A DNA stretch of 64,000 bases from Candidatus Latescibacterota bacterium (lineage in GTDB: Bacteria > Latescibacterota > UBA2968 > GCA-2709665). The translations under genes were made by a program, and so were the position numbers. The DNA lies in NCBI GenBank assembly GCA_965219455.1, contig OZ244744.1, positions 1,152,001 to 1,216,000 on the forward strand. Direction: 5' to 3'. How positions within the stretch are numbered: position 1 is the first letter of the stretch; each line of letters starts with the position of its first letter. Below the pieces are notes generated by a model. The model was not told the origin of the DNA. It did no database searches and was given only the letters and a program-made list of their open reading frames with translations. Positions 7,386 through 25,220 of this stretch are shown here, in pieces.

Positions 7386-7471
7386 CCGGCCGCTCCGATA
7401 GCCCCAACGTCGCAAGGCGGCGGGCGCCGACGCATCGGCATTCATTGCACGCAATACCCCGCAGCTGAGAA

Positions 7472-8863: not shown

Positions 8864-8925
8864 CTTCGCTACCCTTCGACCCTTCGACAGGCTCAGGGAC
8901 CGCAAGCTCAGGGAGCGGCTCAGGA
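8864..8925. repeat. Nested REP-like elements of the CCCTTCGACA(A/G)GCTCAGGG family
   Basis: cccttcga[cccttcgacaggctcagggaccg]caagctcagggagcgg; degenerate complementary arms lie upstream (8810-8855). Confidence 0.65.
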
Positions 8926-9066
8926 GCCAGGCTATATGAATTTCGTCACGTGCGTTGCCTTTGCCGGTCTGCCGAATTTCGGCAATCTGTTTCCGGCACG
9001 GAACCCTGGCCGAGTTCGTTTTGACACCGTTTTTGGCGATCCGGAATAGCCGGCACACCCTGGAGG

Positions 9067-9825
9067 GTGAAGCTTATCGGACTTGGCAACTTACGACATG
9101 CGGTCGTGCGCTGGCTCACGGGTGAACGAGAAGCGCACTCTCCGGAGCAACTTCAGGAAAAACTCGGATATCGTTTTTCCGATCCCGACCTCCTGGTCCA
9201 GGCGATCAAACACCGCTCCTACGTTTATTCCATGGACGAAGGGAGCATCGCCTCAAACGAACGGCTGGAGTTTCTGGGCGACGCCGTACTGGATCTGCTG
9301 GTCACCGAGAACCTGTATCGGAATTTCCAGAACAAACGAGAGGGCGACCTGACCCAAATCAAGTCGGTACTCGTCAGCAAAGTCATTCTCTCCCAGCGGG
9401 GCCGGGCTATCGGACTCGGACACTACATCCTGCTAAGCAAAGAAGAGGACCTGGCGGGAGGAAGAGAACGGACCTCCATCATCGGCGACGCATACGAGGC
9501 CATTCTCGGCGCAATCTACCTCGACGGCGGCTTAAAGGCCGCGGCCACGTTCGTGCAGCGTCATCTCCTCTGCAACATCGAGGCGATTGTCGCCAACAAC
9601 AGCTATCTCAATTTCAAAAGCGCCCTCCTGGAGCATACGCAGGGCGAAGGCCGGGGACACCCCCGCTATCTGGTCAGTTCGGAAGAGGGACCGGACCACC
9701 ACAAAATGTTCAGCGTCGAGGTCCTGATCGGCGGTGAACGCACGGGCTTCGGAAAGGGCCGCAGCAAAAAAGAAGCACAACAGATGGCGGCGAAAGAGGC
9801 GTTGGAGAAGCTGGGGGTTTCTTGA
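9067..9825 (+). CDS. rnc: Ribonuclease III
   Basis: NERLEFLGDAVL signature, DAYEAILGAIYLD and a C-terminal dsRBD (G.GRSKKEAQQ.AA); SD ggagg. Confidence 0.97.
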   Translation: MKLIGLGNLRHAVVRWLTGEREAHSPEQLQEKLGYRFSDPDLLVQAIKHRSYVYSMDEGSIASNERLEFLGDAVLDLLVTENLYRNFQNKREGDLTQIKSVLVSKVILSQRGRAIGLGHYILLSKEEDLAGGRERTSIIGDAYEAILGAIYLDGGLKAAATFVQRHLLCNIEAIVANNSYLNFKSALLEHTQGEGRGHPRYLVSSEEGPDHHKMFSVEVLIGGERTGFGKGRSKKEAQQMAAKEALEKLGVS

Positions 9826-9842
9826 ACCATGCAGGCAACGAG

Positions 9843-10003
9843 TGTTCTGTCCCGGAAATAAGTTGCCTGAATTCGGCCGTCGAGTCGCCCGGCTCGCAAG
9901 GCGCCAGAGCGCAGGCGACCTGGGCAAGGTCGGCCAGCGATGGCAACGTAGCGAGACGGGATGAATCGTCGGAAGAATGGTGAGGTATTTTTGGGACAGG
10001 ACA
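9843..10003. mobile_element. MITE (family B) with TIRs TGTYCTGTCCCRRAAATA and flanks CGAG/CTAG
   Basis: Left end tgttctgtcccggaaata, right end tatttttgggacaggaca; no transposase; inverted second copy at 20363-20485. Confidence 0.8.
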
Positions 10004-10869
10004 CTAGATCGCGTCAATGGCGTTTCCTGAACACACGGTCGGGAAACGCTTTTTTCAATATGGCGGTGGACGAAGCCATTGTGCGCGGCGTCGAGGGCGG
10101 GACCGCACCGCCCACGGTCCGGACGTTTGGCTGGACGCCGCCGGCCGTCTCGTTCGGCTATGCCCAGAGGATCGATCGTGAAATCGACGCGGATCGATGC
10201 AGGGAGCGCGGCATTCACCTTGTCCGCCGTCCGAGCGGCGGTCGCGCCGTACTCCACTGGAACGAGCTGACCTACAGCGTGCTGTGCCGGGCCGACGACC
10301 CCCTGCTGGGCGGCTCCATTCAGGAGTCCTACCGGAACATCAGCGCCTGCCTGGTTGCGGGCCTTCGACTCCTTGGCATAGCCGCCGAGTTCGAGCCACG
10401 CCGCACTCCCGTTTCGTCGCCGCGCGGCGCGGGTCTCACGTCACCCTGTTTTTCGAGCACCACGCAGTACGAGGTGACGGTTGACGGCAAGAAGATCATC
10501 GGCAGCGCACAGCGACGCCTTGGCGATATGCTGCTTCAACACGGCTCGTTGCTTCTGGGCCCGGAACACAAGCGCCTCATCGATCTCATGCCGGACCGCG
10601 GACAGCCCCTGAAAGAACGCTTTCGACGGGAATTGGACCGCCACACCATCTCCCTGGAGGAAGCCGGCCAACCCGCAGACTTCAACACCGTCGCGCGTGC
10701 CCTGCGGGACGGTGTTGAGAAAACCCTCGACGTCGCCCTGGTTGAATCGCCGTTGACTCAGGAGGAAAAGGCCGACGCCGATGGTCTCATCGCGACGAAG
10801 TATGGTACGGACGCCTGGAACTTCGGAGACAGGGCGCAGGAACCCCGGGTCGTCCGACGCATCATCTGA
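9961..10869 (+). CDS. Lipoate-protein ligase / octanoyltransferase (LplA/LipM-like)
   Basis: WRFL, NMAVDEA, VRRPSGGRAVLH, KKIIGSAQ and LQHGS motifs. The present start lies inside the MITE (see findings). Confidence 0.9.
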   Translation: MNRRKNGEVFLGQDTRSRQWRFLNTRSGNAFFNMAVDEAIVRGVEGGTAPPTVRTFGWTPPAVSFGYAQRIDREIDADRCRERGIHLVRRPSGGRAVLHWNELTYSVLCRADDPLLGGSIQESYRNISACLVAGLRLLGIAAEFEPRRTPVSSPRGAGLTSPCFSSTTQYEVTVDGKKIIGSAQRRLGDMLLQHGSLLLGPEHKRLIDLMPDRGQPLKERFRRELDRHTISLEEAGQPADFNTVARALRDGVEKTLDVALVESPLTQEEKADADGLIATKYGTDAWNFGDRAQEPRVVRRII

Positions 10870-10880
10870 AAACCAGTTAG

Positions 10881-10918
10881 CAGTCCGTTGATAAAGTTGC
10901 TCTGCAGGCGAGGCCGAG
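10881..10918. mobile_element. Half-copy of MITE family A
   Basis: cagtccgttgataaagttgctctgcaggcgaggccgag matches the left end of 13503-13560 and 34961-35147. Confidence 0.75.
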
Positions 10919-10971
10919 CCCGTGTCCCACAAGCCGGCCCCTTATCGCCTCGCCTTCGATTCTCCAAAAGC

Positions 10972-11412
10972 ATGGACAAACCCAAGACGCGCCGAACGTC
11001 CTCCGAACTCCGCTGGACCGTTCATCCCCTCCGGGACGAACCGCCTGCAAAAACGGCCTTGCTCATCTTCATCGTCCTCGGGTTCTCGGTTCTGGTTGCA
11101 ATCGCGTTCGACGCGCCGGCGTTCGGTTACCTGTCGGCCGTGCTGCTCACGGCTTCGATGTCCCGCTACTTTCTCCCCACGCGATACGCGCTCCAGGAAA
11201 GTCATATCCTGATTGCACACCTGGGCGCACGGCGGACAATTCCCTGGAACCGGATTCGCCGGCGTACCGTCGGCCCCGACGGCGTCTTTCTCAGCCCATT
11301 CGCCAGCCCACATCGGCTCGATCCGTTTCGAGGATGTTTTTTGCGGCTTCGTGACAATCGGGACGAGGTCATCCACTATGTTGAAACCCGCCTCGCGGAT
11401 GCAGCGCCTTAG
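10972..11412 (+). CDS. Hypothetical membrane protein (2 TM plus a bPH-like beta domain)
   Basis: ATG at 10972; two hydrophobic helices followed by YFLPTRY...LSPF..P.RLDPFRG. Confidence 0.75.
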   Translation: MDKPKTRRTSSELRWTVHPLRDEPPAKTALLIFIVLGFSVLVAIAFDAPAFGYLSAVLLTASMSRYFLPTRYALQESHILIAHLGARRTIPWNRIRRRTVGPDGVFLSPFASPHRLDPFRGCFLRLRDNRDEVIHYVETRLADAAP

Positions 11413-11725
11413 GACCTGGTGCGAACACGCTTTCGCCGTCAACCCGCCGGAACATCGCATCACCGGGGAAGAGCGTGTTCTTGCGGCGAAAATGGCGGAA
11501 TTCGTGGTTCGCAGGCAAATGACCACGCCCGCGTTGATGGTGCTGGAAGCCGGCCGGCCGCTCAACTTTATAGGCAGTCAGTTTTTGACTTTTCTTTCTC
11601 CCTTTGTCACCCTTATCTTCTCGAGCGTGGAGTATGATCGATTTGTGCGTTTTCTGGAGAAACGGCAGAGCGTGCAGACGCTGATCGATTCTCTCGTGGA
11701 GGCGGAAAACCGACTGAATGGATAA
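11378..11725 (+). CDS. Small conserved hypothetical protein of the GlmL-like/DUF6754 cluster
   Basis: LE..RPLNFIGSQ motif; overlaps the upstream stop and the start of the GlmL-like gene; start may instead be ATG 11399. Confidence 0.75.
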   Translation: MLKPASRMQRLRTWCEHAFAVNPPEHRITGEERVLAAKMAEFVVRRQMTTPALMVLEAGRPLNFIGSQFLTFLSPFVTLIFSSVEYDRFVRFLEKRQSVQTLIDSLVEAENRLNG

Positions 11726-13502
11726 ACCGGACGTCATCATCGCCACGGACTGCGGCAGCACGACCACCAAGGCCATCCTTATCGAGAAGAAAGGAGAGTC
11801 CTACCGGCAGACCTATCGCGGCGAGGCGCCCACCACGGTCGAAGCTCCATTTGAAGACGTCACCCGGGGCGTACTCAACGCCATACAGGAAGTCGAAGAA
11901 CTTTCCGGGCGCGCCATCCTGGACGGCGAACGTATCATCACGCCCGCCGCAGGCGGCCGCGGCGTTGACATCTATGTGTCAACAAGCAGCGCTGGAGGCG
12001 GCCTCCAGATGATGGTGGGCGGTGTTGTCCAGGCAATGACAGGGGAAAGCGCCCAGCGAGCCGCCCTCGGCGCCGGGGCCATCGTGATGGACGTCCTTGC
12101 ATCCAACGACGGCCGCCTGCCGCACCAGAAAATCGAACGCATCCGCCATTTACGACCCGACATGGTGCTTCTCTCCGGCGGAACGGACGGCGGTACCGTG
12201 AGCCACGTGGTGGAACTCGCCGAGTTCATCGCCGCAGCGGACCCCAAACCCAGGTTCGGCGCCGGTTTTCGGCTTCCGGTGATCTATGCCGGAAACAGAG
12301 ACGCCCGGGAGAACGTTCAAAAGGTCCTGGGCGAAAAAACCGCACTGGAACTCACGGACAATATCCGCCCGCGGCTCGAACGCGAAAACCTCGGACCGGC
12401 GCGCCAGGTTATCCACGACCTCTTCCTGGAACACGTGATGGCGCAGGCGCCCGGATACCGCAAACTGATGGAATGGACGGGCGCGCCCATCATGCCCACG
12501 CCCGGCGCGGTCGGCCTGCTCATTCAGACGGTGGCCCGGCGACGGAACATCAACGTCGTGGGTGTGGACATCGGCGGCGCAACCACCGATGTCTTCAGCG
12601 TCTTCGGCGATCGATTCAACCGGACCGTAAGCGCCAACCTGGGCATGTCCTACAGCATCTCCAACGTGCTGGCCGAGGCCGGCCTGCCGAACGTGATGCG
12701 CTGGGTACCCTTCGAAATCGAAGAAGCCGACCTCAGGGACCGCGTCAAAAACAAGATGATCCGTCCAACGACCGTGCCCCAGACGCTGGAGGAACTGCAA
12801 CTCGAACAGGCCATCGCCCGCGAGGCATTGCGTCTGGCGTTCGAGCAACACCGCGCCCTGGCCGTCGGCCTCAAAGGCGTGCAGACGGAACGCACACTCT
12901 CCGACGCCTTCGACCAGACCGGCGCCGGCGAGAGTCTGATTCACATGCCGGATCTGGACCTGCTGGTGGGCAGCGGAGGCGTTCTTTCCCACGCGCCCCG
13001 GCGCGCGCAGTCGGCCGCCATGCTCATCGACGCCTTCCAGCCCCAGGGCTTTACGCGACTGGCCGTTGACAGCATCTTCATGATGCCCCACCTGGGTGTC
13101 CTGACAAGTGTCAACGAACAGGCCGCGACAGAGGTATTCGACCGGGACTGCCTGGTCGATCTGGGTACCTGCGTTGCCCCTGCCGGCCAGGGGAAACCGG
13201 GCGAAGTCTGCGCCACGTACGAAATCGGCCTTTCCGACGGCACCGAGTCCGGCGAACTGAAAATCGGGGCGCTGCATATGTTCCAGGTGGGCCCGGACCA
13301 GGAGGCCGCAGTCACCCTGCATCCCGAGTCGAACTGGAATGCAGGGGCTGGGCCGGGTCAGACGATTCGCCAGACCGTGAAGGGTGGCGCGGCCGGCCTG
13401 ATTCTGGACGGGCGTGGACGGCCGATTCCATTTTCACACGCGGATCGAGCCGGGCGGATTGCCGCCTGGAACAGGGCATTGGACCTCTATCCTCACCATT
13501 AG
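11718..13502 (+). CDS. glmL: GlmL/MutL(OraF)-like ASKHA (actin-fold) ATPase, usually annotated 'glutamate mutase L'
   Basis: TDCGSTTTK (phosphate-1), SSAGGGL, LLSGGTDGG, MPTP, DIGGATTDVFS (phosphate-2) and GSGGVL motifs; no mutase subunits in the window. Confidence 0.85.
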   Translation: MDKPDVIIATDCGSTTTKAILIEKKGESYRQTYRGEAPTTVEAPFEDVTRGVLNAIQEVEELSGRAILDGERIITPAAGGRGVDIYVSTSSAGGGLQMMVGGVVQAMTGESAQRAALGAGAIVMDVLASNDGRLPHQKIERIRHLRPDMVLLSGGTDGGTVSHVVELAEFIAAADPKPRFGAGFRLPVIYAGNRDARENVQKVLGEKTALELTDNIRPRLERENLGPARQVIHDLFLEHVMAQAPGYRKLMEWTGAPIMPTPGAVGLLIQTVARRRNINVVGVDIGGATTDVFSVFGDRFNRTVSANLGMSYSISNVLAEAGLPNVMRWVPFEIEEADLRDRVKNKMIRPTTVPQTLEELQLEQAIAREALRLAFEQHRALAVGLKGVQTERTLSDAFDQTGAGESLIHMPDLDLLVGSGGVLSHAPRRAQSAAMLIDAFQPQGFTRLAVDSIFMMPHLGVLTSVNEQAATEVFDRDCLVDLGTCVAPAGQGKPGEVCATYEIGLSDGTESGELKIGALHMFQVGPDQEAAVTLHPESNWNAGAGPGQTIRQTVKGGAAGLILDGRGRPIPFSHADRAGRIAAWNRALDLYPHH

Positions 13503-13560
13503 CAGTCCGTTGAAAAAGTTGCTCTGCAGGCGAGGCCGGATGGACTTTTTCAACGGGCTG
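13503..13560. mobile_element. 58-bp minimal MITE (family A)
   Basis: TIRs cagtccgttgaaaaagt / actttttcaacgggctg; flanks TTAG/TCAG, and the left flank includes the glmL stop codon. Confidence 0.8.
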
Positions 13561-13584
13561 TCAGGCGTCATAGGGAGACAAACC

Positions 13585-15426
13585 ATGGCTATAGGGCGCA
13601 GGTTGGCAATCCTCGGGCTTTTATGCTTCATTGGGGTCGCATGCAAGGACGAACCCCCGTGGCAGAAGGTTCAGCGCACGCTGATGGAAACGCGGGAAGC
13701 CGCAGCGATCGTTCTGGAGGGAACGGAAAGAGTGTCCGCCATGTACGCCGGCGTCGCGGAACCGGAATTCGGCGACTGGATGGTCCTCCACTTCCTGTCG
13801 GATCCGGAAAATTTCAACCCGTACGTCTCGAACGACTCCGGCGCCTCCGCGGTTCAAAAGTACATCTTCGAATCGCTCCTCGACATCGAGAACAAATCAC
13901 CCTATAAACTCAGAGGGTTGGTTGCAAAAGCACCTCCCACGGTATCCGAAGACAAGCTCACCTATACCTTCGACCTGCGCGACGACGTCCATTTCGCCGA
14001 CGGCAAGCCTCTTTCGGCGGACGACGTCCTCTTCAGCATCAAGGTCATCAAGAACCCCAAAGTTCTGGCCGCCTCGCTCCGCAATTATTACGCGGCCGTC
14101 AGTGACGTCGAGCAGGACGGCAAATACAGAATCAGCTTCGTCTGCCAGGAACCCTACTTCCGGAACAACATCTCCCTGGGCAGCATGCAGATTCTCCCCA
14201 AACACTTCTACGACCCCGACGGCCTGCTGGATCCCGTCGACATACAAAGCCTGATCGACGGCTCCTGGGAAAGCGGTCCGCACGCCGAGCGCGTGCAGCA
14301 GTTTGCCGAGAAATTCAACACCGGATACCACCGGAACATGCTGGGCTCCGGGCCCTATCTCGTGGAAAACTGGGAAGACGACGTGGTCACGGGGCAGAGG
14401 GTTATACTGACCCGCAATCCCAACTACTGGGGAAGGGACCGCGCCGATCTGATGCACAAGGGATACGTGGAGAAAATCGTCTTCAAGATCGTGAACGACC
14501 AGGAGGCCGCGTTTATCGAACTCACGAACGGAAACATCGACTACTTCGGGCTCAGACCCCTGCAATTCAAGGACAAGAGCTGGTCTCCGGACTTTATGGA
14601 CCGGTTCAAGAAGAGCGTGGTTTATTCTTCGGGTTACGTGTACATCGGCTGGAACAACGCACACCCCATCTTCCGCGACAAACGGGTACGCAAAGCCATG
14701 ACGTACCTCACCGACCGGGAAAGCATGGTACTGAACCTTATGTTCGGCCTGGCGGAAACCGTTGAGGGGCCCATTCACAAATTCCGTCCCGAATACAACC
14801 ACGGTCTCGAACCTCACGCCTACGATCCCGACAGAGCGCTCGCACTGCTGGAGGAGGCCGGCTGGGCCGATACCGACAACGACGGCATCCTGGATAAGGA
14901 CATCGACGGCGAGAAACAGCCCTTCAAATTTGAATTCCTCGTCAATTCCGGCAACCAGCTCCGCAAAGACATCGCCCTGGCTCTGCAATATGAACTTCAG
15001 GACATTGGAATCGCCTGCGAGGTGCGTGAACTCGACTGGACCATATTTCTGGACCGGGTCGTTCGAAAAAAGGAATTCGCCGCCTGCACCCTCGGGTGGA
15101 CCGGCAGCCTGCGTCTGCCGCCGGATTCCTACCAGATCTGGCACTCCTCGCAGGCAGACGGCCAGGGTTCAAATTACATCGGTTTCAAAAACGACGAAGT
15201 CGACGGCATCCTGGAAGCCTACCGCAGAGAATTCGATATGGACAAACGCATTGAACTCTACCGGCGGTTTCAGAAAATCCTGTACGACGAACAACCCTAT
15301 ACGTTCCTCTGGAAGTCCCGCAACGCCATATCCTACAGCAGGCGTTTCGCAGGTGACAACTGGTATGCCATTGGCGCGGACACCCAGGAATGGTGGGTAG
15401 GCGCCGGCAACCGGTTGTATCAGTAA
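13585..15426 (+). CDS. oppA: Peptide/nickel ABC transporter substrate-binding lipoprotein (SBP family 5)
   Basis: Signal peptide with lipobox IGVAC; YTFDLRDDVHFADGKPLSADDVLFS, GSGPY and D.RVRKAM motifs. Confidence 0.9.
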   Translation: MAIGRRLAILGLLCFIGVACKDEPPWQKVQRTLMETREAAAIVLEGTERVSAMYAGVAEPEFGDWMVLHFLSDPENFNPYVSNDSGASAVQKYIFESLLDIENKSPYKLRGLVAKAPPTVSEDKLTYTFDLRDDVHFADGKPLSADDVLFSIKVIKNPKVLAASLRNYYAAVSDVEQDGKYRISFVCQEPYFRNNISLGSMQILPKHFYDPDGLLDPVDIQSLIDGSWESGPHAERVQQFAEKFNTGYHRNMLGSGPYLVENWEDDVVTGQRVILTRNPNYWGRDRADLMHKGYVEKIVFKIVNDQEAAFIELTNGNIDYFGLRPLQFKDKSWSPDFMDRFKKSVVYSSGYVYIGWNNAHPIFRDKRVRKAMTYLTDRESMVLNLMFGLAETVEGPIHKFRPEYNHGLEPHAYDPDRALALLEEAGWADTDNDGILDKDIDGEKQPFKFEFLVNSGNQLRKDIALALQYELQDIGIACEVRELDWTIFLDRVVRKKEFAACTLGWTGSLRLPPDSYQIWHSSQADGQGSNYIGFKNDEVDGILEAYRREFDMDKRIELYRRFQKILYDEQPYTFLWKSRNAISYSRRFAGDNWYAIGADTQEWWVGAGNRLYQ

Positions 15427-15505
15427 CCCCGATGCCGACGGACGGAAACGCATCTTTTCCGGATCTCCAATGCACCGAAGTCCGGACGGCGAGGCCTGAA
15501 GCCAG

Positions 15506-16807
15506 ATGATTCAATACATCGTGCATCGCAGTCTGCTGATGATCCCGACGATGATCGGCATCACCCTCATCTCTTTCCTTATCATGCACCTCGCGCCGGG
15601 AGACCCGGTGGACTTTTTTCTCGGGGGCATGGCGGGAGACGAGGGCATCTCGACGGATCGGAAGTCCGATTTCGAAAAAACGCGGGAGGAACTGCGCCGC
15701 CAACTCGGCCTGGACAGGCCGCTGCACATCCAGTACCTGAACTGGTTATCGAGCCTGGTACTACACGTGGAGCCACTGAACAACTTCGAACGCGCGGGCA
15801 GGCGCGTCGACGACTTTCTCGCGGGACTGGGTCCGGAGGAACGACGTGAGTTGGCCGCACTGGAAAACGAGGCGCGGAAAGCGCGGTTCCTTCGCCGTTT
15901 CGAGAAATATCAACCGGACGAGGCGCAGGCGCTCGTCCATTCGTCTTTCTGGGAGAGCAAAACCGTCAAGCTCGAGAACAACTACGAATATACCGGCGCC
16001 GGCCTGCTGCTCTTCCATCTCTTCGATCGGCGCTTTGTCACACTCAATTTCGGTCGTTCTTTCAAAGATCAGCAACCGGTCATCGCCCATATCCTCGCCC
16101 GGGTGCCCATCACCATTGAAATCAACATTATCAGCCTGATCATCGCCTATCTCATCGGACTCCCGCTCGGTATCTGGCTGGCTGTCAAACAGGATACGCG
16201 GACCGATCGCACACTCACCACCGGAACCTTCATCCTGTGGTCCATGCCTTCGTTCTGGGTTGGCATGCTGCTCATCGTGTTTTTCTGCAACAGGGAATTC
16301 CTCTACTGGTTTCCGGCCTCGGGCATCCAATCCCTGGACGCCTCCTCCGACTGGGGCTTCTGGCGGCTGTTAACCGACCACGCCCATCACATGGCCATGC
16401 CGGTACTGGCCTCCAGCTATGCCAGCTTCGCGGGCCTCTCCCGTTTCATGCGAACCAGCATGCTGGAAAATCTAAGACTGGACTACGTGCGCACCGCCCG
16501 GGCGAAGGGCCTGCCTGAGAAGATCGTGATTCTCAGGCACGTCTTCCGCAACTCCCTGATCCCCATCGTGACCATCCTGGCGAATCTGCTTCCGGCCATC
16601 ATTGCCGGCTCGGTCTTCATCGAGACCATCTTCACCATTCCGGGTCTGGGCTTTCTGGGCGTTCAATCCGTGCTCGTTCGCGACTATCCCATGGTAATGG
16701 CCATTCTGACCATCGGTTCGGTCCTCTCGTTGCTGGGCATTCTGCTTGCGGACATCCTCCTGAAAGTCGTGGATCCGCGCATCGAGTTTTCTCGTTCGCA
16801 GGGATAA
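15506..16807 (+). CDS. oppB: Peptide ABC transporter permease (OppB/DppB) with an extra periplasmic insertion
   Basis: LAPGDP, GLDRPL..QY, DYVRTARAKGL (EAA loop), RDYP and DPRI motifs. Confidence 0.92.
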   Translation: MIQYIVHRSLLMIPTMIGITLISFLIMHLAPGDPVDFFLGGMAGDEGISTDRKSDFEKTREELRRQLGLDRPLHIQYLNWLSSLVLHVEPLNNFERAGRRVDDFLAGLGPEERRELAALENEARKARFLRRFEKYQPDEAQALVHSSFWESKTVKLENNYEYTGAGLLLFHLFDRRFVTLNFGRSFKDQQPVIAHILARVPITIEINIISLIIAYLIGLPLGIWLAVKQDTRTDRTLTTGTFILWSMPSFWVGMLLIVFFCNREFLYWFPASGIQSLDASSDWGFWRLLTDHAHHMAMPVLASSYASFAGLSRFMRTSMLENLRLDYVRTARAKGLPEKIVILRHVFRNSLIPIVTILANLLPAIIAGSVFIETIFTIPGLGFLGVQSVLVRDYPMVMAILTIGSVLSLLGILLADILLKVVDPRIEFSRSQG

Positions 16808-16811
16808 ATCT

Positions 16812-17882
16812 ATGGCCGACGGTCCCACGCGCGATCACCCCGAAGCGGACCCTGGAACGCCCGAACCCGAGGCTGTCCAGGAGAGCCAGACCTATTCGAA
16901 GCTGGTCTGGCGGCAGTTCAAAAAAAATCGCCCGGCCCTCTTCAGCCTGGCGGCGATCGGCGTTCTCGCGCTGACGGCGGTGTTCGCGGATTTTCTCGCG
17001 GGCAACAAACCCTACTATATGAAATACCGGGGAAAGACTTATTTCCCGGCCTTTCGCCAGTACGCCGTCTATCTCGGACTGGCCGATTGGCCGGCGCCGC
17101 TCAGGAGAAAAAGAAACTTCAAACGCCTCAGGTCCGAATACGCTATTTTTCCGCCCGTTCCCTATGGTCCAAGCGACGTCAATCTCGGCGAAAAGTACCA
17201 GCCGCCCGGCACGACGCATTTTCTGGGTACGGATCGGCTGGGCCGCGACGTACTTTCCGGATTGATTCACGGATCCCGATACGCGCTCACCATTGGCCTG
17301 GTCTCGGTAACGATCTCGATGATCATCGGCGTCTCCCTGGGCGCGGTGGCTGGCTATTTCGGGGGTTGGCCCGATCTGATTCTATCCCGTCTGTTCGAAC
17401 TCTGGGCCGCCATCCCCGCCCTCTTTCTGATCATCACGGTAGCCGCGTTTTTTCCGCCCAGCCTCTTCTTCGTGATGATCATTCTCGGCTTCACGGGTTG
17501 GGTCGGAATCGCCCGGCTCACCCGGTCGCAATTCCTGCAGGTGAGAAGCTACGACTTTGTTTCCGCGGCCAAGAGCCTGGGATATTCCAGCGGCCGGATC
17601 ATGTTCATCCACATTTTGCCCAACGCAATTGCGCCAGTGCTGATCCCGGCGGCCTTCGGGGTGGCGGGCGCCATTCTGGCGGAATCCGGCCTCAGCTTTC
17701 TCGGCATTGGCGTACCCGCGGAGGCCATCACGTGGGGTGCGATCCTCGCCGGCGCCCGAAGCAATTTCTCGGCATGGTGGCTGGTCATCGTACCCGGTTT
17801 CGCCATCTTTATCACCGTAACCCTCTACAACCTGCTTGGTGACGGCCTTCGAGACGCCCTGGATCCCAAGATGAAAGTCTGA
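16812..17882 (+). CDS. oppC: Peptide ABC transporter permease (OppC/DppC)
   Basis: WRQFKKNR, HFLGTDRLGRD, HILPN, LSFLGIG and NLLGDGLRDALDP motifs. Confidence 0.93.
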   Translation: MADGPTRDHPEADPGTPEPEAVQESQTYSKLVWRQFKKNRPALFSLAAIGVLALTAVFADFLAGNKPYYMKYRGKTYFPAFRQYAVYLGLADWPAPLRRKRNFKRLRSEYAIFPPVPYGPSDVNLGEKYQPPGTTHFLGTDRLGRDVLSGLIHGSRYALTIGLVSVTISMIIGVSLGAVAGYFGGWPDLILSRLFELWAAIPALFLIITVAAFFPPSLFFVMIILGFTGWVGIARLTRSQFLQVRSYDFVSAAKSLGYSSGRIMFIHILPNAIAPVLIPAAFGVAGAILAESGLSFLGIGVPAEAITWGAILAGARSNFSAWWLVIVPGFAIFITVTLYNLLGDGLRDALDPKMKV

Positions 17883-17946
17883 GACCGGAGCTGCCCGCCG
17901 ATTGACGGCACCGGCGGGTCGATGCACCTCACGGAATCCTTAACCC

Positions 17947-19068
17947 ATGGCGCATACGTACACCCCCGGCCTGCGCGTCACCCGCAGGGCGACCATACGG
18001 AAGAGACGCCAGTTGCCGCTCACCGGAGAGGTGCTGGTTTCGGAGGGCGAATCCGTACAGCGCGACCGGGTCGTGGCCCGGACCGATCTGCCCGGTAACG
18101 TGACCACCCTGAACCTGGTCAACAGGCTGGGCGTCACCCCCGACGAACTCCCGACCTTCATGCTCAAGGAGGAGGGTGAGCCGGTCGAGGCCGGGGAACC
18201 CATTGCCGAAACCAGGCCATTCATCAGATGGTTCAAAAACACGGTGGCGTCGCCGGTCACAGGCACCGTGGAAAGCGTATCGCCCATTACCGGCCAGGTC
18301 ATCCTGCGCGGTCCGCCCTGTCCCGTGCAGGTAAGGGCCTACGTGGACGGCGCCGTTGTGGAAATCATTCCCGGCGAAGGGGTCGTAATTGAAACCGCCG
18401 GCGCCTTTCTTCAGGGCATTTTTGGAATTGGCGGCGAGAGCTGGGGCCCGATCCGTACGCTTGCCGCAACCCCCGAAGAGCGGCTCTCGGAGGAGCGGAT
18501 CGACGCCTCCTGTGCCGGGAAAATTCTCATTGCCGGGGGCCTCGTTACCCTCGATCTCATCCGGACGGCGCGGACAATCGGAGCAGCCGGCCTCATTGGC
18601 GGGGGCATTCGTGACGACGACCTGCGGAGCCTGCTCGGGTACGACCTCGGCGTGGCCATTACCGGCGCCGAGGAAATTGGCCTCACCGTCGTGGTCACGG
18701 AAGGATTCGGCGACATCGCCATGGCGCGTAAGACATTCGATATCCTGAACGAAAGGAACGGCGACGAGGCCTCTATCTCGGGCGCAACCCAGATCCGGGC
18801 CGGCGTCCTTCGTCCCGAAATCATCGTTCCGGATCCGGAAGGTTCGTCCATCGCCGAGGATATCGTCGACCGGGAAGGCCTTTCCATTGGAGATCCGATC
18901 CGTACAATACGGGCGCCCTATTTCGGAAAAACCGGCGTGATCACCGGCCTGCCATCCGAACTGGCGGCCGTCGAATCGGAAATCCGTGTACGCGTCCTGG
19001 AAGTTCAGTTCGAGAACGGACAACAGGCCGTGATCCCCCGAGTAAACGCCGAAAGGATTGAAGCGTAA
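17947..19068 (+). CDS. Conserved hypothetical soluble protein with repeated barrel-sandwich-hybrid motifs and a KOW-like C-terminus
   Basis: MAHTYTPGL; V..GE.V/EGE.V.AGE.IA...SPVTG.V repeats; QGIFGIGGE; TQIRAGV.RPEI; L.IGD.IR.IRAPYFG. Confidence 0.85.
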   Translation: MAHTYTPGLRVTRRATIRKRRQLPLTGEVLVSEGESVQRDRVVARTDLPGNVTTLNLVNRLGVTPDELPTFMLKEEGEPVEAGEPIAETRPFIRWFKNTVASPVTGTVESVSPITGQVILRGPPCPVQVRAYVDGAVVEIIPGEGVVIETAGAFLQGIFGIGGESWGPIRTLAATPEERLSEERIDASCAGKILIAGGLVTLDLIRTARTIGAAGLIGGGIRDDDLRSLLGYDLGVAITGAEEIGLTVVVTEGFGDIAMARKTFDILNERNGDEASISGATQIRAGVLRPEIIVPDPEGSSIAEDIVDREGLSIGDPIRTIRAPYFGKTGVITGLPSELAAVESEIRVRVLEVQFENGQQAVIPRVNAERIEA

Positions 19069-19149
19069 TGTACCCGGCGCCCGACCGCCACTTCCGTCCT
19101 CGCCCCAACAGATCCGGCGCGCCTGAATAGGACCGCCAGGAGACCCGCA

Positions 19150-20334
19150 ATGGCGCATCTATCCCTCTTCTTCGCTCTAGTCATCGCCGCCGCGCCCGCC
19201 CTCGCGGCAGACATGGGACCCAACGACGTTCGGGCTTTCGACACGCCCAACGACCAGGGATACAGCATCACGCTCACCTGGCGGCGGATTGACTTCCTGC
19301 CGGACAGCGCGCGCTATCGCATCAGCGTCTCCGAATCGGTGGACGGCCCCTTCTATGACGTCGCGGAACTGGATCCGAAAACGGCTCCGACGATGGCCGA
19401 AGAGCCGGCCACGTTCGGCAGGGGGAAAGAGAGCCGCAATCGTCACTTCGTCCATATCGATTCCTACCTCGTTCCGGACAGACTCGACCGGATCAGGCTC
19501 GAAAACAACCGGCCCTACTTCATTCGCCTCGAAATCCACGGTGTGGGCCATACCGTTGTCGAGGTGCAGGCCCACGGCAACTATTTCAACTGGACCAAGC
19601 TCAATAATTTCGTATTGGCCGCGCTCTTCTCCATTATGATCCTCTTCTATATCCGAGTTGCCCGCCGCAAGAAACTCTACATCCGGCGGCTGGCCGGCCT
19701 GGACGCCCTGGACGAAGCTCTCGGCCGGGCAACCGAAATGGGAAAACCGGTGCTTTTCATCCACGGCCTGCAGGATATGGGCAGCCCCTCCACCATTGCC
19801 GCCGTGAACATTCTCGGCCAGGTGGCAAAAAGAACCGCCGAATACGATACCCAGCTCAAGGTGGGCAACCGGGATCCGATTGTTATGTCCGTGAGCCAGG
19901 AAGTGGTCAAGGAATCCTGCATCGAAGCCGGGCGGCCGGACGCGTTCAACCCGGACAATGTCTTTCTGGCGGCTGCGGATCAGTTCAGCTACGCGGCCGC
20001 GCTGGACGGCCTGATGGTGCGGGAGAAGCCGGCGGCCAATCTTCTGATAGGTTATTTCTACGCCGAAGCTCTGCTCCTGGCGGAAACCGGCTCCACGACC
20101 GGCGCCATTCAGATCGCCGCGACCGATGCCTATACGCAGCTTCCGTTCTTTATCACGACCTGCGACTATACCCTGATGGGGGAGGAACTCTACGCCGCCA
20201 GCGCCTATCTTTCCAGAGATCCCAAACTTCTGGGAAGCCTGAAGGGACAGGACCTGGGGAAAGGCATCCTGATCCTTATTCTGGCGCTCGGTTCTTTACT
20301 GGCGAGCATCGGCTTTTGGCCGATCCTGGGCTGA
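19150..20334 (+). CDS. DUF6754-like membrane protein with signal peptide and FN3-like extracytoplasmic N-domain
   Basis: Signal peptide; DTPND.G.SITLTW; TM helix; IRRLAGLDALDEALGRATEMGKPV; QLPFFITTCDYTLMGEELYAASAYLS; C-terminal TM. The DUF number is from recall. Confidence 0.82.
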   Translation: MAHLSLFFALVIAAAPALAADMGPNDVRAFDTPNDQGYSITLTWRRIDFLPDSARYRISVSESVDGPFYDVAELDPKTAPTMAEEPATFGRGKESRNRHFVHIDSYLVPDRLDRIRLENNRPYFIRLEIHGVGHTVVEVQAHGNYFNWTKLNNFVLAALFSIMILFYIRVARRKKLYIRRLAGLDALDEALGRATEMGKPVLFIHGLQDMGSPSTIAAVNILGQVAKRTAEYDTQLKVGNRDPIVMSVSQEVVKESCIEAGRPDAFNPDNVFLAAADQFSYAAALDGLMVREKPAANLLIGYFYAEALLLAETGSTTGAIQIAATDAYTQLPFFITTCDYTLMGEELYAASAYLSRDPKLLGSLKGQDLGKGILILILALGSLLASIGFWPILG

Positions 20335-20362
20335 CGACGTTGGTAAAGCGTCGACGTCTCAG

Positions 20363-20485
20363 TGTTCTTTCCAAAAAATACGTCACCAATCATCCGCCTG
20401 TGTGCGTGCAGGTCTTCCGCACAGGCAGGCCGGTTCATCCCGTCTCGGCGGCCGAATTCAGGCAATCCATTTCCGGGACAGAACA
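20363..20485. mobile_element. MITE family B (inverted relative to 9843-10003) carrying an internal REP
   Basis: Ends tgttctttccaaaaaata / atttccgggacagaaca; flanks TCAG/CCAG; internal ggccgaattcaggcaa shared with the other copy. Confidence 0.78.
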
Positions 20486-20515
20486 CCAGCCGCCATTTCG
20501 CACGGAGAAAACCGA

Positions 20516-21172
20516 ATGTATTTCCTGCAACGCACCCTGCCTCTGCTCGTGGCCTTTGTAGCAGGTGTCATCGGCATTTTCACCTACTATATTCCGGTTG
20601 CCCAGCCGGTTGAGATCACAACCTCCACCTGGTACCGGATCATCGCAGCCTTCGCCCTGTTCCTGGGCATCCACAGCCTGTTGCAGATGCATTGGAACCG
20701 GGTCAAACGCAAACAGGCCGGGTGGGCCTTCAGCGCAGTTGTTTACATAGGTTTTATCGTCACAGCCATCCTGGCCCTCTACAACAATGGTCGGGGACCC
20801 CTGCAGCCATTGGCGCAGGGCGACGGCCTGGATCTGAACTGGATGTATACCCACATCCACGTGGCCGGCGGGGCCACGATGTTCTCTCTCCTCGCCTTCT
20901 TTATCGCTTCCGCCGCCTACCGCACGTTTCGCGCCCGGTCGGCCGAGGCCGCTGTACTCCTTGTTGCAGCCGTGCTCGTCATGCTGGGCCGGGTACCCAT
21001 CGGCGCGCTCATCTCGGAACACCTCCCGACCGTCTCCCAATGGCTGATGGCCACACCCAACCTGGCCGCCCGCCGCGGCATCCTGCTGGGCGTGAGCCTC
21101 GGCGCCATCGCCACGGCCCTGCGCATCATCTTCGGCATCGAACGATCCTATCTCGGAGAGGAAGGAAAATGA
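20516..21172 (+). CDS. Conserved multi-pass membrane protein of the DUF6754 cluster
   Basis: ATG 20516 with SD ggag; about six TM; ATMFSLLAFFIASAAYRTFR and R.IFGIERSYLG motifs. Confidence 0.85.
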   Translation: MYFLQRTLPLLVAFVAGVIGIFTYYIPVAQPVEITTSTWYRIIAAFALFLGIHSLLQMHWNRVKRKQAGWAFSAVVYIGFIVTAILALYNNGRGPLQPLAQGDGLDLNWMYTHIHVAGGATMFSLLAFFIASAAYRTFRARSAEAAVLLVAAVLVMLGRVPIGALISEHLPTVSQWLMATPNLAARRGILLGVSLGAIATALRIIFGIERSYLGEEGK

Positions 21173-21996
21173 TCGAGCGCCTTCTGAACATCGACCGCCG
21201 CATCGTCTACCTTGCCGTCTTTCTGGCTGTATGCATTCCTCTGCTTATTGGCTTCGAACTGCCGATCAAAGCAACACCCAACGTCCGCGCCGTCTACGAC
21301 ACCGTGGATAGCCTGGCCGGAAAACCGGATGCCGTCGTACTCATCTCCTTCGACTACGGCCCCAGCTCACAGCCGGAACTCCAGCCCATGGCCCTGGCCA
21401 TTCTGCGCCACTGCTTCAGCCGGAATATCCGGGTGGTGGGCGTGACCCTTATCACCGAAGCCGTGGGGCTGGCGATGCAGGCTTTTGAGACGGCGGCGGC
21501 GGAATACGGCCGGGTTAACGGTACGGACTATGCATTTCTCGGTTTCAAGGCCGGCGGTCCGATCCTGATCCTGAGCATGGGGCAGGATCTGCACGGCGCA
21601 TTTCCCGAAGACATCCGGGGTGTTGCCGCCACCGAAATGCCCCTCACCCGCAATCTGCGCTCGCTGAAGGATTTTGATTACGTGATTGACCTGGCCGCCG
21701 GGTTTCCCGGCGTCGACGAATGGATCGCGTACGGGCAGGAACGATACCGGTTCCCCCTCGGCGCCGGATGTACCGCCGTGATGGCGCCGGATTTCTTTCC
21801 CTTTCTTCAGTCCCGGCAGCTCAACGGTCTCATCGGCGGGCTCGCGGGCGCCGCGGAATACGAAGCCCTGGTGGGCAAGCGAGCGCTGGCTGTCAGCGGC
21901 ATGCGCCCCCAATCCGTCGCCCATATGGTCATCATCGGGTTTATCCTGCTCGGCAACGTCGTCTACTTTTTGCATCGCGGCGCCTCACGCTCGTAA
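21169..21996 (+). CDS. Membrane-anchored alpha/beta protein, probable distant paralog of the DUF6754-like gene
   Basis: ATGA overlap at 21169; IDRRIVYL TM; SFDYGPSSQPEL; GLIGGLAGAAEYE; C-terminal TM ending LLGN. Confidence 0.85.
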   Translation: MIERLLNIDRRIVYLAVFLAVCIPLLIGFELPIKATPNVRAVYDTVDSLAGKPDAVVLISFDYGPSSQPELQPMALAILRHCFSRNIRVVGVTLITEAVGLAMQAFETAAAEYGRVNGTDYAFLGFKAGGPILILSMGQDLHGAFPEDIRGVAATEMPLTRNLRSLKDFDYVIDLAAGFPGVDEWIAYGQERYRFPLGAGCTAVMAPDFFPFLQSRQLNGLIGGLAGAAEYEALVGKRALAVSGMRPQSVAHMVIIGFILLGNVVYFLHRGASRS

Positions 21997-22209
21997 GAAG
22001 CTGTTTTAAAATTTCCGGTGAGTTCCCGCCGAGCGCGAGCGAAAAAGTGGCGGTTATGAGGCGCGAGGGGCGCGCAGCGCCGGCGGGAGAATCCGGCTAT
22101 GAGAGGCGAGCGAGCGCAGCCTCGACCTCGTAGGACGGGTGGGTTTGACCAACGCCGACCGGCGCTTTTGCAGCCGCGCGAAGACCGCTGGGGATTTTAA
22201 AACAACTTC
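21997..22209. mobile_element. MITE (family C) with IS5-family-like ends and a TAA target duplication
   Basis: TIRs gaagctgttttaaaat / attttaaaacaacttc; TAA on both sides, the left one being the upstream stop codon. Confidence 0.82.
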
Positions 22210-22224
22210 TAAAGGGACACCGGC

Positions 22225-22968
22225 ATGGACAGAGAACGCATCGTCTTCCCGATCTTCATTCTGCTTTTTGCGGCGGTAAACGGGTATCTGCTGGCCGTCG
22301 GCGACCTGGATCAAAGCTGGTCGGGGTTCGGGATTATCCTTGCCGCAGGTGTCACGCTCGCCCTTTACAGTTTTTTGTATAGGGACAATCCGCTCTTTAA
22401 GCTGGCCGAGCATCTCTACGTCGGCGTTGTTGCCGCGTACGAACTCGCTCTGGTCTGGTATCAGAGCATCCTGTTGGACGTCATCAACCCCCTCTTCCGT
22501 CCGCCTCCCGGGGCAGGCGTCAAATGGTGGGTGATCGTTCCCACCTGCCTCGGTCTATTTCTGATGACCCGTTTATTCGGCCGGGCGGTCTGGCTCAGCC
22601 GCATCTCCTTTGCCTTTTTCGTTGGGCTCGGCGCCGGCCTGGCCATCCCCCGGCGCGTCGCCTCCTTCGTCATCGAGCAGATCGAACCCACAATCCTTCC
22701 GTTTTCGAAGGCATCGACGGACTTCGGATGGGCTGTACTGAACCCGGCGATCATCCTGATCGGCGTGTTGAGTGTACTCATTTACTTCTATTTCTCCGTC
22801 GAGCATAAGGGTGTTGTGGGCGGAATCTCCAGAGTAGGCATCTGGTTCCTCATGGTCTCATTCGGCGCTTCTTTCGGTTATACCGTGATGGCGCGCATTT
22901 CTCTGCTCATCGGCCGCGTGAATTTTCTCCTGGAAGACTGGCTGAACCTGAATCCGCCGCTTTTCTGA
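22225..22968 (+). CDS. Conserved multi-pass membrane protein of the DUF6754 cluster
   Basis: [20 protein letters not shown] and [22 protein letters not shown] motifs; about seven TM. Confidence 0.85.
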
Positions 22969-23071
22969 TCCGGCGGAACCAGTTGATTTCCCATCAGATG
23001 CGTCCCATTCGGATCCGCGCATTTGCCCGGTTCGCGGCGCATTTGGAAACATTCAACATAGGGTCGGCACT

Positions 23072-24070
23072 ATGTCGGAACCTATTTTGACCGTTGAAGA
23101 TCTAAGAACGTACTTCCATACGGACGGCGGGGTCGCCAAAGCCGTGGATGGGGTCTCCTTCACTCTGAACAAAGGGGAAACCCTGGGCCTGGTGGGAGAG
23201 TCCGGATGCGGCAAGAGCGTCACGTCTCTGTCGATTATGCGTCTGATACCCGAACCACCGGGTGAAATCGTCTCCGGTCAGATCCGGTTCAACGGACGGA
23301 ATCTTCTGAGTCTGGAAGAAAGGGCGCTCCAGGGGGTAAGAGGCAACGACATCGCGATGATTTTCCAGGAGCCGATGACCAGCCTCAACCCTGTCTTCAC
23401 CTGCGGAGACCAGATTGACGAAGCCGTTATGCTCCACCAGCGTCTTGGCAGGCGCGCCGCCCGGGCCAAGACCGTGGACATGCTCGATCTGGTCGGCATT
23501 CCGGATCCCGGGCAACGGGCAAACGAGTATCCTCACCAGCTTTCCGGCGGCATGCGCCAGCGGATAATGATTGCCATGGCCCTCTCCTGCAATCCGGAAC
23601 TGCTCATTGCCGACGAGCCCACCACGGCGCTGGACGTGACCATTCAGGCCCAGATTCTGGAACTTCTGGACCGGCTTCAGAGAGAATTGGGGATGGCCGT
23701 CCTGATGATTACCCACGACCTCGGCGTCATCGCGGAAGTTGCCGACCGCGTGGCGGTCATGTACGCCGGAAAGATCGTGGAAACCGGAACGGTGGATGAA
23801 ATCTTCGCCGACCCCCGGCATCCCTACACGAGAGGATTGCTGGAATCCATTCCCACACTCAACGAAGAGAAAAGCCGGCTATCCGTTATCCCGGGCACCG
23901 TGCCCGACGCGACTCGTTTTCCCGCCGGATGCCGATTTGCACCCCGGTGTTCGCTGGCGGAGAACATATGTGAAGCGAACGAGCCGCTCCTGGAACCGAC
24001 CGCCTGCAACCGCCACGTGGCCTGCTGGATGGTCGAAGATTATCCTTCTTCGATGACGCGATCGGATTGA
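23072..24070 (+). CDS. oppD: Peptide ABC transporter ATP-binding protein
   Basis: [32 protein letters not shown] and a Cys-rich C-terminus. Confidence 0.95.
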
Positions 24071-24071
24071 C

Positions 24072-25061
24072 ATGTCCAAACCACTGCTCGAAGTCCACGG
24101 GCTTAAAAAACACTTCCCCATCACCCGCGGGATTTTCTCCCGGACGGTCGGCTACGTAAAGGCCGTAGACGGGGTTTCGTTCACCGTTCGCCGGGGCGAA
24201 ACCCTGGGTCTGGTGGGAGAATCCGGATGCGGCAAAACCACCGCCGGAAGAACGATCCTCCGGCTCATCGAGGCCACCGAGGGTCGCGTACTGTTCAATG
24301 GCGTTGACGTCTTCGGCCTTAACGGCTCCGAACTTCGCGCCGTACGGCGCCGTATGCAGATCATATTCCAGGACCCCTACAGTTCGCTGAACCCCCGTAT
24401 GACCGTGGGGGGAATGCTGGCCGAAGCGCTGAAAATCCACAAACTCACCGATGGAAGCGATACGCGGGAGAGGGTTTCCGAACTCCTCGACACCGTGGGC
24501 CTCCGACCGGACTATGCCCGCCGGTATCCCCACGAATTCAGCGGGGGCCAGCGTCAACGCATCGGCATTGCGCGGGCGCTGGCGGTGAATCCGGAATTTA
24601 TCGTTGCGGACGAACCCGTTTCCGCCCTGGACGTTTCGATTCAAGCCCAGATCATCAATCTTCTCCAGGATCTTCAGGGCCGGTTCGGCCTCACCTTCCT
24701 CTTCGTCGCGCACGATCTGAGCGTTGTCAAACACATTTCCAACCGAATCGCGGTGATGTACCTCGGGCGTATCGTGGAAATCGCCGACAGCCGTACCCTC
24801 TGCAGCGATCCGCAACATCCGTATACCCGGGCGCTGCTCTCGGCCGTTCCCGAGCCGAATCCGCGTGTCAAGAAGCAACGCACGGTACTCACCGGCGACG
24901 TACCCAGCCCGGCCAATGTTCCTTCCGGCTGCCCCTTTCATCCGCGCTGCCCCGAGCGTGAAGACGCATGCACAAAGATCGTGCCGGAACTGCTTGAAAT
25001 TAATGGGAACCACAGCGTCGCGTGCATTCTGCGGACACGGCAACACCTCCCAACCGCCTGA
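24072..25061 (+). CDS. oppF: Peptide ABC transporter ATP-binding protein
   Basis: [28 protein letters not shown] and GCPFHPRC motifs. Confidence 0.95.
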
Positions 25062-25220
25062 TTTTGGAACTGTTCGTTGTCTTTGGACGTCTATTTATAT
25101 ATTTTATAGCCGAACCGCGACCGGCGTGCGCACGACGAGGTTGTTCACCCGCGCCCAGGCGCAACGTCCAGCTTCCCGACGGCCGTCCAATCCAACCACC
25201 GAAGTCCAGGAGAAGCAATT

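Follow-up and report, generated by a model that had tools for sequence, protein, structure and literature searches.

The window analysed here comprises 64,000 nucleotides (positions 1,152,001 to 1,216,000 of contig OZ244744.1, GenBank assembly GCA_965219455.1) from a Candidatus Latescibacterota bacterium whose genome is assembled as a single 5.84-Mb contig. Between window positions 10972 and 22968 lies a set of genes that a first-pass annotation, produced from the DNA sequence alone, had read as a candidate undescribed membrane machine built on an actin-fold ATPase, and this set is the subject of the present work. All eight genes named there were confirmed as open reading frames (ORFs) on the + strand with the proposed starts. 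Seven of them form a core, consisting of g115, the ATPase MutL594, KOW373, the DUF6754 protein, TM218, ab275 and TM247, that stays together, or in the same genome, across several phyla.

Gene content and conservation of the locus

The first gene of the set, g147 (10972-11412), encodes, as judged by hydropathy, two hydrophobic helices and a soluble tail, and is followed by g115 (11378-11725), an ORF for a small helical protein whose alignment shows it to be conserved. Next comes MutL594 (11718-13502), an ASKHA ATPase of 594 residues assigned through PF13941 to the GlmL/MutL family. Further downstream are found KOW373 (17947-19068), the 373-residue barrel-sandwich/swivel/KOW partner of the ATPase as described from an AlphaFold2 model, the DUF6754 protein (19150-20334), assigned through PF20539, and three membrane proteins recognised by hydropathy. 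These are TM218 (20516-21172), with about six helices, ab275 (21169-21996), in which terminal membrane helices flank a middle domain of 210 residues, and TM247 (22225-22968), with six or seven helices; the polytopic character assigned to TM218 and TM247 in the first pass is reflected in about six hydrophobic segments in each. The overlapping gene pairs noticed there correspond to g147/g115 (35 nucleotides), g115/ATPase gene (8 nucleotides) and TM218/ab275 (4 nucleotides). Searches of Pfam, NCBIfam and PADLOC gave no family match for g147, g115, KOW373, TM218, ab275 or TM247, and none of the eight proteins matched a PADLOC model of anti-phage defence at E 0.01 or better.

The same span holds three further + strand genes that the first-pass account had left out: an Opp/Dpp-type (family 5) solute-binding lipoprotein (13540-15426; PF00496, 264 bits), a 433-residue OppB-type ATP-binding cassette (ABC) permease (15506-16807), named by sequence reading and position, and a 356-residue OppC-type ABC permease (16812-17882), recognised from its ORF and its orthologues. 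Together with an OppD-type ABC ATPase (23072-24070), named by reading its Walker and signature motifs, and an OppF-type one (24072-25061), an ORF, both also on the + strand and located after TM247, they make up a complete Opp-type importer interleaved with the core, with the binding protein and permeases at 13540-17882 and the two ATPases at 23072-25061.

Conservation of the core was explored in genomes taken at one per species, in which at least 599 stretches matched two DUF6754 peptide patterns; 590 of them were confirmed, and the best 80 were kept as loci. Their sources are Latescibacterota, Methylomirabilis and Planctomycetota, the last represented by Brocadiales, Scalindua and others, as well as metagenome-assembled genomes (MAGs) carrying the label Gemmatimonadota. 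When a Scalindua locus served as tblastn query, DUF6754 was counted in all 80, TM218 in 79, ab275 in 78, TM247 in 76, KOW373 in 71 and the ATPase in 69, and g115 was found by tblastn directly upstream of the ATPase gene in 66. The core genes keep their order and strand, the ATPase gene abuts that of KOW373 in most of these loci, and outside the core no gene is common to more than one lineage. The accessory gene g147 is lineage-limited, being found by tblastn in 46 of the 80 loci, all Latescibacterota-type. Seven Brocadia-type loci hold the four membrane genes only; KOW373 was encoded elsewhere in all five such genomes tested, and in four of them the ATPase gene lies beside it.

Co-occurrence was also evaluated in a sample of 151 genomes of the phylum by comparison of two lists: DUF6754 and KOW373 were each found in 126 genomes, both in 124 and neither in 23, the genomes being kin rather than independent and the counts being given without a statistic. 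The four genomes with one of the two genes are G035 (75% complete) and G039 (60% complete), with DUF6754 only, and G151 (87% complete) and G040 (61% complete), with KOW373 only, and one family had neither gene in its 13 genomes, which are 88-97% complete. In a Planctomycetota sample KOW373 was found in 40 of 151 genomes, and Marinimicrobia, WOR-3, Eremiobacterota and Armatimonadota were further source names in the searches. The recurrence stated in the first pass is therefore borne out, as is the co-occurrence of the parts across genomes; the habitat given there, that of anaerobic peptide-degrading bacteria and archaea, was not returned by our searches, which covered bacteria only.

The ATPase, its partner and the B12-mutase question

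MutL594 matches PF13941 ('MutL'), a family of the hydantoinase-A branch of ASKHA proteins, at 432 bits, against a cut-off of 27, over residues 7-478. As anticipated in the first pass, its motifs are intact: DCGSTTTK, GGTDGG, DIGGATTD and GSGGVLSHAP, which we take to be the phosphate-1/2 and adenosine motifs of the ATPase, are invariant or nearly so among 23 aligned sequences, residues D11, G13, T15, K18, G154-G159, D284-D291 and G418-G421 being invariant in all of them. Orthologues are 65-80% identical across phyla, and the protein displays a conserved C-terminal extension of about 115 residues. Weak Hydantoinase_A and Hydant_A_N matches were also detected with Pfam, and a PDB search with the family profile retrieved no chain with an E value of 0.01 or below.

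The label 'glutamate mutase L', already suspected to be a misannotation, does not fit the sequence. The window ATPase scores 232.3 bits for the NF040745 GlmL equivalog (cut-off 475), 213.4 bits for NF040744 Or-4 (cut-off 600) and 166.9 bits for the TIGR01319 GlmL subfamily, glmL_fam (cut-off 204.05). On the contrary, a second PF13941 gene of the genome, encoding 470 residues, reaches 568.5 bits against the GlmL cut-off of 475 and 395.6 against 204, and is placed directly after a GlmS gene (197.6 bits, cut-off 110). This true GlmS-GlmL pair lies outside the window (L004 9435-11293; G000:C1:3453455-3455247) and is preceded by a DegT-like aminotransferase gene. The two ATPases share 34% identity, with nucleotide-binding loops invariant in both, and the C-terminal extension is absent from the true GlmL. 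No GlmE was detected in the genome; within its genus, two genomes encode one, fragmented in one case, and the GlmS-GlmL locus may be that of a decaying glutamate mutase.

The first pass had seen no B12 mutase subunit in the window, and indeed the five B12-binding matches of the genome all lie outside it. The Rfam scan of the window gave no match and, thus, no cobalamin riboswitch in it. Within the 151 genomes of the phylum GlmE was found in three and OraE above its cut-off in none, compared with 126 for the system, so that the ATPase clade does not track these mutases, and the genome's own GlmS had no tblastn match in the 80 loci. As far as sequence can tell, the window system has no link to GlmE/OraE mutases and its ATPase is no glutamate-mutase accessory.

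These observations also bear on an explanation in which the protein would be a cobalamin-related chaperone, namely a GlmL-type reactivase serving a membrane corrinoid protein or corrinoid salvage or transport, with DUF6754 as the cofactor-binding partner. All relatives of the ATPase that bear a name are connected with B12 enzymes: a figure legend in PMC4682846 describes GlmL/MutL as a chaperone in the reactivation of glutamate mutase, and the Or-4 relative is named an ornithine-degradation protein by NCBIfam; the swivel domain of KOW373 moreover resembles that of glycerol dehydratase reactivase. Nonetheless, the window holds no B12-binding domain and no Rfam match, GlmS is not matched in the 80 loci, the distributions of GlmE and OraE are those just given, no Pfam B12 family appears among the membrane proteins, and the genome keeps a separate true GlmL. 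This explanation is consequently regarded as the least probable of those weighed here.

The AlphaFold2 model of KOW373, obtained with 24 sequences, has a predicted local distance difference test (pLDDT) score of 86.3 and consists of three domains, namely the barrel-sandwich and KOW parts recognised in the first pass and an additional swivel domain. The N-terminal barrel-sandwich of 70 residues resembles the N-domain of NqrA/RnfC (Z 7.4-7.6 over 64-65 residues), while the C-terminal KOW/SH3 barrel (residues 310-373) resembles the KOW domain of NusG/Spt5 (Z 8-9). The swivelling beta/beta/alpha domain between them (residues 152-297) finds its fold matches in enzyme I of the phosphotransferase system (PTS; 2wqd_A, Z 9.4, root-mean-square deviation 2.6, 104 residues), rifampin phosphotransferase (Z 9.0) and RraA (Z 8.8), and the fold search places swivel domains also in aconitase X, pyruvate kinase and phosphoenolpyruvate (PEP)-utilising enzymes. 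Foldseek retrieved in addition a weak match of KOW373 to the glycerol dehydratase reactivase 1nbw_A (E 0.011, probability 0.92, 193 columns), and 1nbw was outside the top 50 of a VIA-align search with the same model. No His is invariant within residues 152-297 in the 24-sequence alignment, the only invariant one being H3, which makes the swivel unlikely to be a phosphohistidine carrier. PDB profile searches with KOW373 returned nothing significant.

The KOW373 profile matched 3358 of 1.84 billion cluster representatives with E values up to 0.001, and 1054 when the limit was 1e-30. Sixty of the homologues are longer (654-2000 residues), and 59 of these carry PF13941, most being 950-1020 residues in length; PF13375 is recorded in two of the 60. 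Named sources of the fusion clusters are Marinimicrobia, Planctomycetota, Aegiribacteria and Fermentibacteria, with 70-223 member sequences in some clusters. Four closely related fusions (P0161, P0146, P0123 and P0169), aligned with both window proteins, display the whole ATPase, including its C-terminal extension, then a linker of about 25 residues and then the whole KOW373, starting at 'AHxYTPGL'. Such fused polypeptides are good evidence that the ATPase and KOW373 act as one unit.

Fusions suggested by long open frames in the phylum-sample genomes were discarded as artefacts, these being stop-free frames in GC-rich DNA. The sixtieth longer homologue, P0121, is a public protein of 707 residues that joins the whole KOW373 to the leader, the FN3 domain and the first half of the DUF6754 protein; the order of its parts agrees with the topology proposed below, and, as a single truncated read-through, it is not relied on.

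The ATPase might instead polymerise like MreB, FtsA or PilM, as a membrane-anchored actin-like scaffold that organises an envelope process without mechanical work. Membership of the ASKHA fold family would suit such a role, and so would the 65-80% identity between phyla, which is on par with cytoskeletal or Hsp70-type proteins. The gene preceding that of the ATPase could supply the small hydrophobic adaptor: g115, helical by composition as read in the first pass, has 13 invariant positions in its alignment and no segment above the hydropathy threshold, and its central hydrophobic stretch, TPAxMxLExxRPLNFIGSQ, makes it a possible membrane-surface adaptor. However, the one-to-one fusion with KOW373 suits an enzyme-like pair better than a filament, and PMC5597319 lists glutamate mutase among the enzymes of the actin superfamily that form no polymers. 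The scaffold is hence considered improbable.

The membrane proteins and the interleaved Opp importer

The DUF6754 gene is present in one copy in the genome, and its product matches PF20539 at 379.7 bits (cut-off 27) over residues 142-388. The protein displays an N-terminal hydrophobic leader, a membrane helix at residues 152-170 and a last helix at 371-389. The FN3-like domain foreseen behind the leader was recovered in the model, where residues ~20-144 adopt an FN3 fold (pLDDT 76-92, Z 8.6-9.8, 81-93 residues aligned), and nearly all of the top 50 matches of a structure search with this N-terminal part were FN3 domains; the Pfam fn3 model itself had no match in the window protein. The stretch that follows helix 1 contains a mean of 4.8 Lys/Arg in 15 residues (62 sequences), and therefore the FN3 domain would be outside the membrane and the DUF6754 domain, in which the TTCDYT motif and numerous polar residues are invariant, in the cytoplasm.

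Longer DUF6754 proteins (691-2000 residues) numbered 775. Among the 120 matches listed, the DUF6754 domain is 53-66% identical to that of the window, additional FN3 domains, PQQ-type beta-propellers or HEAT repeats occur in some of the proteins, and the named sources are Planctomycetota, Phycisphaerae, Brocadiia, WOR-3, Edwardsbacteria, Eremiobacterota and Armatimonadetes. A constant cytoplasmic DUF6754 domain combined with exchangeable outer domains would be better explained by an envelope-facing machine than by a small-molecule channel.

In ab275 one hydrophobic helix is found at each end, with Lys/Arg in both tails. PDB profile searches with DUF6754 and ab275 returned nothing significant, the best E values across profiles being 0.03-0.3 for unrelated chains, and the idea that these two proteins might be paralogues was dropped upon a profile-profile comparison (probability 0.9%). 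Member-by-member Pfam scans of ab275, TM218 and TM247 gave scattered weak matches and no consistent family, such as DUF373 and Acyl_transf_3, each in 7 of 26 members of TM218, and DUF3704 in 11 of 62 members of TM247. One genome of the phylum also holds a second, divergent, membrane-only module (L097 1228-6813; G050:C16), with identities of 49% for DUF6754, 37% for TM218, 35% for ab275 and 40% for TM247; its DUF6754 domain is at the end of a 991-residue open frame, and an alpha-L-fucosidase gene adjoins the module.

The invariant residues of the DUF6754 domain look enzyme-like, and a membrane-bound metabolic enzyme complex was considered, in which the ATPase, as a hydantoinase-A-like kinase or carboxylase subunit, would activate some small substrate, with the membrane proteins serving for anchoring or channelling. 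The weak Hydantoinase_A and Hydant_A_N matches, the invariant polar residues and TTCDYT motif of the DUF6754 domain, and the occurrence of swivel domains in aconitase X, pyruvate kinase and PEP-utilising enzymes are all consistent with it. Against this, a swivel devoid of an invariant His is unlikely to take part in phosphohistidine transfer, no subunit matches a catalytic family, and the variable FN3 and propeller outer domains suit an envelope-facing machine better. The enzyme complex is accordingly judged unlikely, even though it stands first among the alternatives.

Regarding the Opp importer, the solute-binding protein shows Opp4A/NikA-like matches in NCBIfam, all below their cut-offs. 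Some Opp part accompanies the system in 39 of the 76 loci that hold both DUF6754 and TM247, in three arrangements. The binding protein and permeases are located between the ATPase and KOW373 genes only in the close relatives of the window (L005-L009, L072 and L075), an orthologue of the binding protein (59-67% identity) is placed just upstream of g147 in 19 other loci, and permeases follow TM247 in L046. Co-oriented OppD and OppF genes lie 59-188 nucleotides after TM247 in 19 of the 76 loci, one of them in a Brocadiales MAG. Orthologues of OppC are 72-78% identical in two other genomes of the phylum, as in the L015-type genome, where it lies ~13 kb downstream (78% identity). In two genomes where OppDF-like genes adjoin the system, the best OppC match reaches no more than 45% and 34%; the 45% value is the best of the whole L012-type genome, whose OppD/OppF next to the system are 69-70% identical. 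Thus, the first-pass proposal of an actin-fold ATPase acting rather than an ABC ATPase did not hold as worded, with a complete importer and its two ABC ATPases interleaved in the cluster and Opp parts adjoining the system in 39 of 76 loci.

Two observations stand apart from these counts. The OppB-type permease (15506-16807) carries a hydrophilic insertion of ~120-150 residues after its first helix, and its 433 residues are more than is usual for OppB/DppB. In one genus, OppF/OppD-like genes (56-57% identical) come directly after TM247 on the opposite strand and convergent to it (L095 7698-9662; G138:C6).

Nesting in the opp operon could indicate a functional tie to peptide uptake, or else a single ancestral insertion later reshuffled within the phylum. 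A system that is itself an accessory of the Opp importer, assisting or regulating peptide uptake or providing membrane partners for OppD/OppF, would account for the placement of the binding-protein and permease genes between those of the ATPase and KOW373, for OppD/OppF after TM247 in the window and in 19 loci overall, for the 39 of 76 loci with an Opp part in three arrangements, and for the genome where OppD/OppF are retained at 69-70% identity with no OppC match above 45% anywhere. On the contrary, Opp is not an integral part of the system, 37 of the 76 loci, including all but one of those from Planctomycetota and Methylomirabilis, being devoid of Opp genes, and the range of the system is far wider than the association. 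Besides, the three arrangements all occur in one phylum and may stem from one ancestral insertion, and ABC ATPases can serve permeases encoded elsewhere. An Opp accessory is therefore a rather unlikely account of the system.

Directly after OppF, the window encodes on the + strand an ORF of 1188 residues (25221-28787) that contains beta-propeller repeats of the PD40 type, matches Peptidase_MA_2 weakly and has the HEXXH-type motif HELTH. Its counterpart was found by tblastn downstream of the system in 22 of the 80 loci, and a role as a secreted peptidase that supplies the Opp importer is possible.

In the wider surroundings, positions 6328-10869 hold FabG-like, FabF-like and RNase III genes, read from their translations, followed by a lipoate-protein ligase gene (9961-10869, + strand; Pfam) that also precedes g147 in many Latescibacterota loci. 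At 36000-62000 (~26 kb) the GC content falls from ~0.60 to 0.48-0.56 with a positive GC skew, returning afterwards to 0.61, and foreign origin of this stretch or a switch in strand bias may be the cause. Four metatranscriptome runs of a single study, with the label sponge metagenome, yielded contigs that differ by 0-2 nucleotides over 150-400 from parts of seven of the window genes, namely g147 and those for the ATPase, KOW373, DUF6754, TM218, ab275 and TM247. A near-identical organism is present in those samples; contigs from RNA libraries are no proof of transcription, and gaps in their coverage carry no meaning.

Proposed mechanism and comparison with known systems

Considering these data together, the reading we favour, with a confidence that approaches an even chance and does not reach it, is that of an undescribed ATP-coupled machine of the inner membrane or envelope, wired to peptide uptake in Latescibacterota. 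MutL594 is proposed as its cytoplasmic motor: with KOW373 it would constitute a nucleotide-driven unit akin to the reactivases of diol and glycerol dehydratases. The four membrane proteins would form an inner-membrane complex on which the unit might dock at the cytoplasmic DUF6754 domain, with g115 as a possible adaptor, and ATP-dependent movements of the unit would be relayed through the membrane to the FN3 and ab275 domains in the periplasm. These domains would in turn act on an envelope or periplasmic substrate, by mechanotransmission rather than by channel-type transport. In Latescibacterota the substrate is probably tied to peptide capture or uptake, because the system sits in an Opp operon beside a presumably secreted PD40/HEXXH protein.

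Several points weigh against such a machine. The mechanism and the roles of all parts derive from anatomy and not from biochemistry: ATP hydrolysis is predicted from conserved motifs, the middle domain of ab275 is placed in the periplasm, as is probable, by a weak charge bias, and the DUF6754 domain is modelled with pLDDT <50, so that the proposed docking surface is not visible. The divergent module of L097 has neither an ATPase nor a KOW373 gene within the 9 kb examined, which suggests that the membrane part may work without the ATPase. A scan of positions 9800-29000 gave 9 promoter-like sites, where chance would give 5.0 ± 2.6, and 20 terminator-like ones, with 18.4 ± 5.0 expected; this is a chance level that lends no support to a single operon. 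As for the wiring to peptide uptake, the 37 loci mentioned above have no Opp gene within ~10 kb, and the Opp-linked loci are Latescibacterota-type in 38 of 39 cases, the other being the Brocadiales MAG. Related genomes not being independent, the link may be inherited gene order with no functional meaning.

A broader proposal, which goes beyond the machine just described and is held, as a whole, with clearly more reserve, is that it represents a new class of trans-membrane machines. Here an actin/Hsp70-fold ATPase, paired with or fused to a swivel protein, would drive the four-subunit complex in the role taken elsewhere by ABC or AAA+ motors. Many uncultured bacteria would possess a machine of this class, anammox bacteria and sponge symbionts among them, and its exchangeable outer domains would reflect different periplasmic tasks, in the present case peptide capture for the Opp importer.

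The family of KOW373 alone has thousands of members, going by the 3358 representatives, and the system is found in most sampled genomes of one phylum and in roughly one in four of a second. The ATPase is conserved like housekeeping proteins, yet all parts are annotated as 'hypothetical' or misnamed 'glutamate mutase L'. In agreement with the first pass, which knew of no functional description, literature searches (supplementary files aside) found no paper on the system: 'DUF6754' occurs in no paper found, and PF13941, TIGR01319, PF20539 and 'glutamate mutase L' only in one unrelated paper. Were the ATP-coupled envelope machine real, it would add a motor type not known for membrane complexes, and correct a systematic annotation error through which glutamate fermentation is wrongly inferred in metabolic reconstructions of Latescibacterota, Marinimicrobia and anammox bacteria. 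The Opp wiring points to peptide uptake as a concrete experimental handle.

Among known systems, GlmL/MutL and Or-4 share the Pfam family and the conserved nucleotide-binding motifs of the window ATPase. The latter differs in scoring below all three NCBIfam cut-offs and in having its extension of ~115 residues; moreover, ATPases of the window type are never beside GlmS, GlmE or OraE in the loci examined, and are always paired with KOW373 and, in the same genome, with the four membrane proteins. The likeness to Rnf and Na+-NQR is limited to the N-terminal barrel of KOW373, which resembles NqrA/RnfC, the membrane proteins having no Rnf or Nqr match.

As regards architecture, PilM-PilN-PilO of type IV pili likewise places a cytoplasmic actin-fold protein on few-helix membrane proteins with periplasmic domains; however, there is no relation of sequence or family, the gene set is different, and the loci hold no pilus genes. 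The type VII ABC systems FtsEX, MacB and LolCDE couple an ATPase in the cytoplasm to membrane proteins with their main functional domains in the periplasm. The window system, whose outer domains vary between lineages, would resemble these mechanotransmission systems only in the way it works and does not belong to their families: Pfam scans of its own proteins detected neither an ABC ATPase nor a fold of the FtsX or MacB kind, and its motor would be of the ASKHA type.

A counterpart of the ATPase-KOW373 unit might be the diol/glycerol dehydratase reactivase (DdrAB/GdrAB; 1nbw). This likeness rests on one common domain with a weak E of 0.011, PDB profile searches detect no sequence relation, and the window system differs in having no B12 enzyme partner, in the added barrel-sandwich and KOW domains, and in its membrane-protein partners. 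Nonetheless, the reactivase likewise combines an ASKHA ATPase with a swivelling beta/beta/alpha domain, and in the natural fusions found here a single chain comprises both the ATPase and the protein with the swivel.

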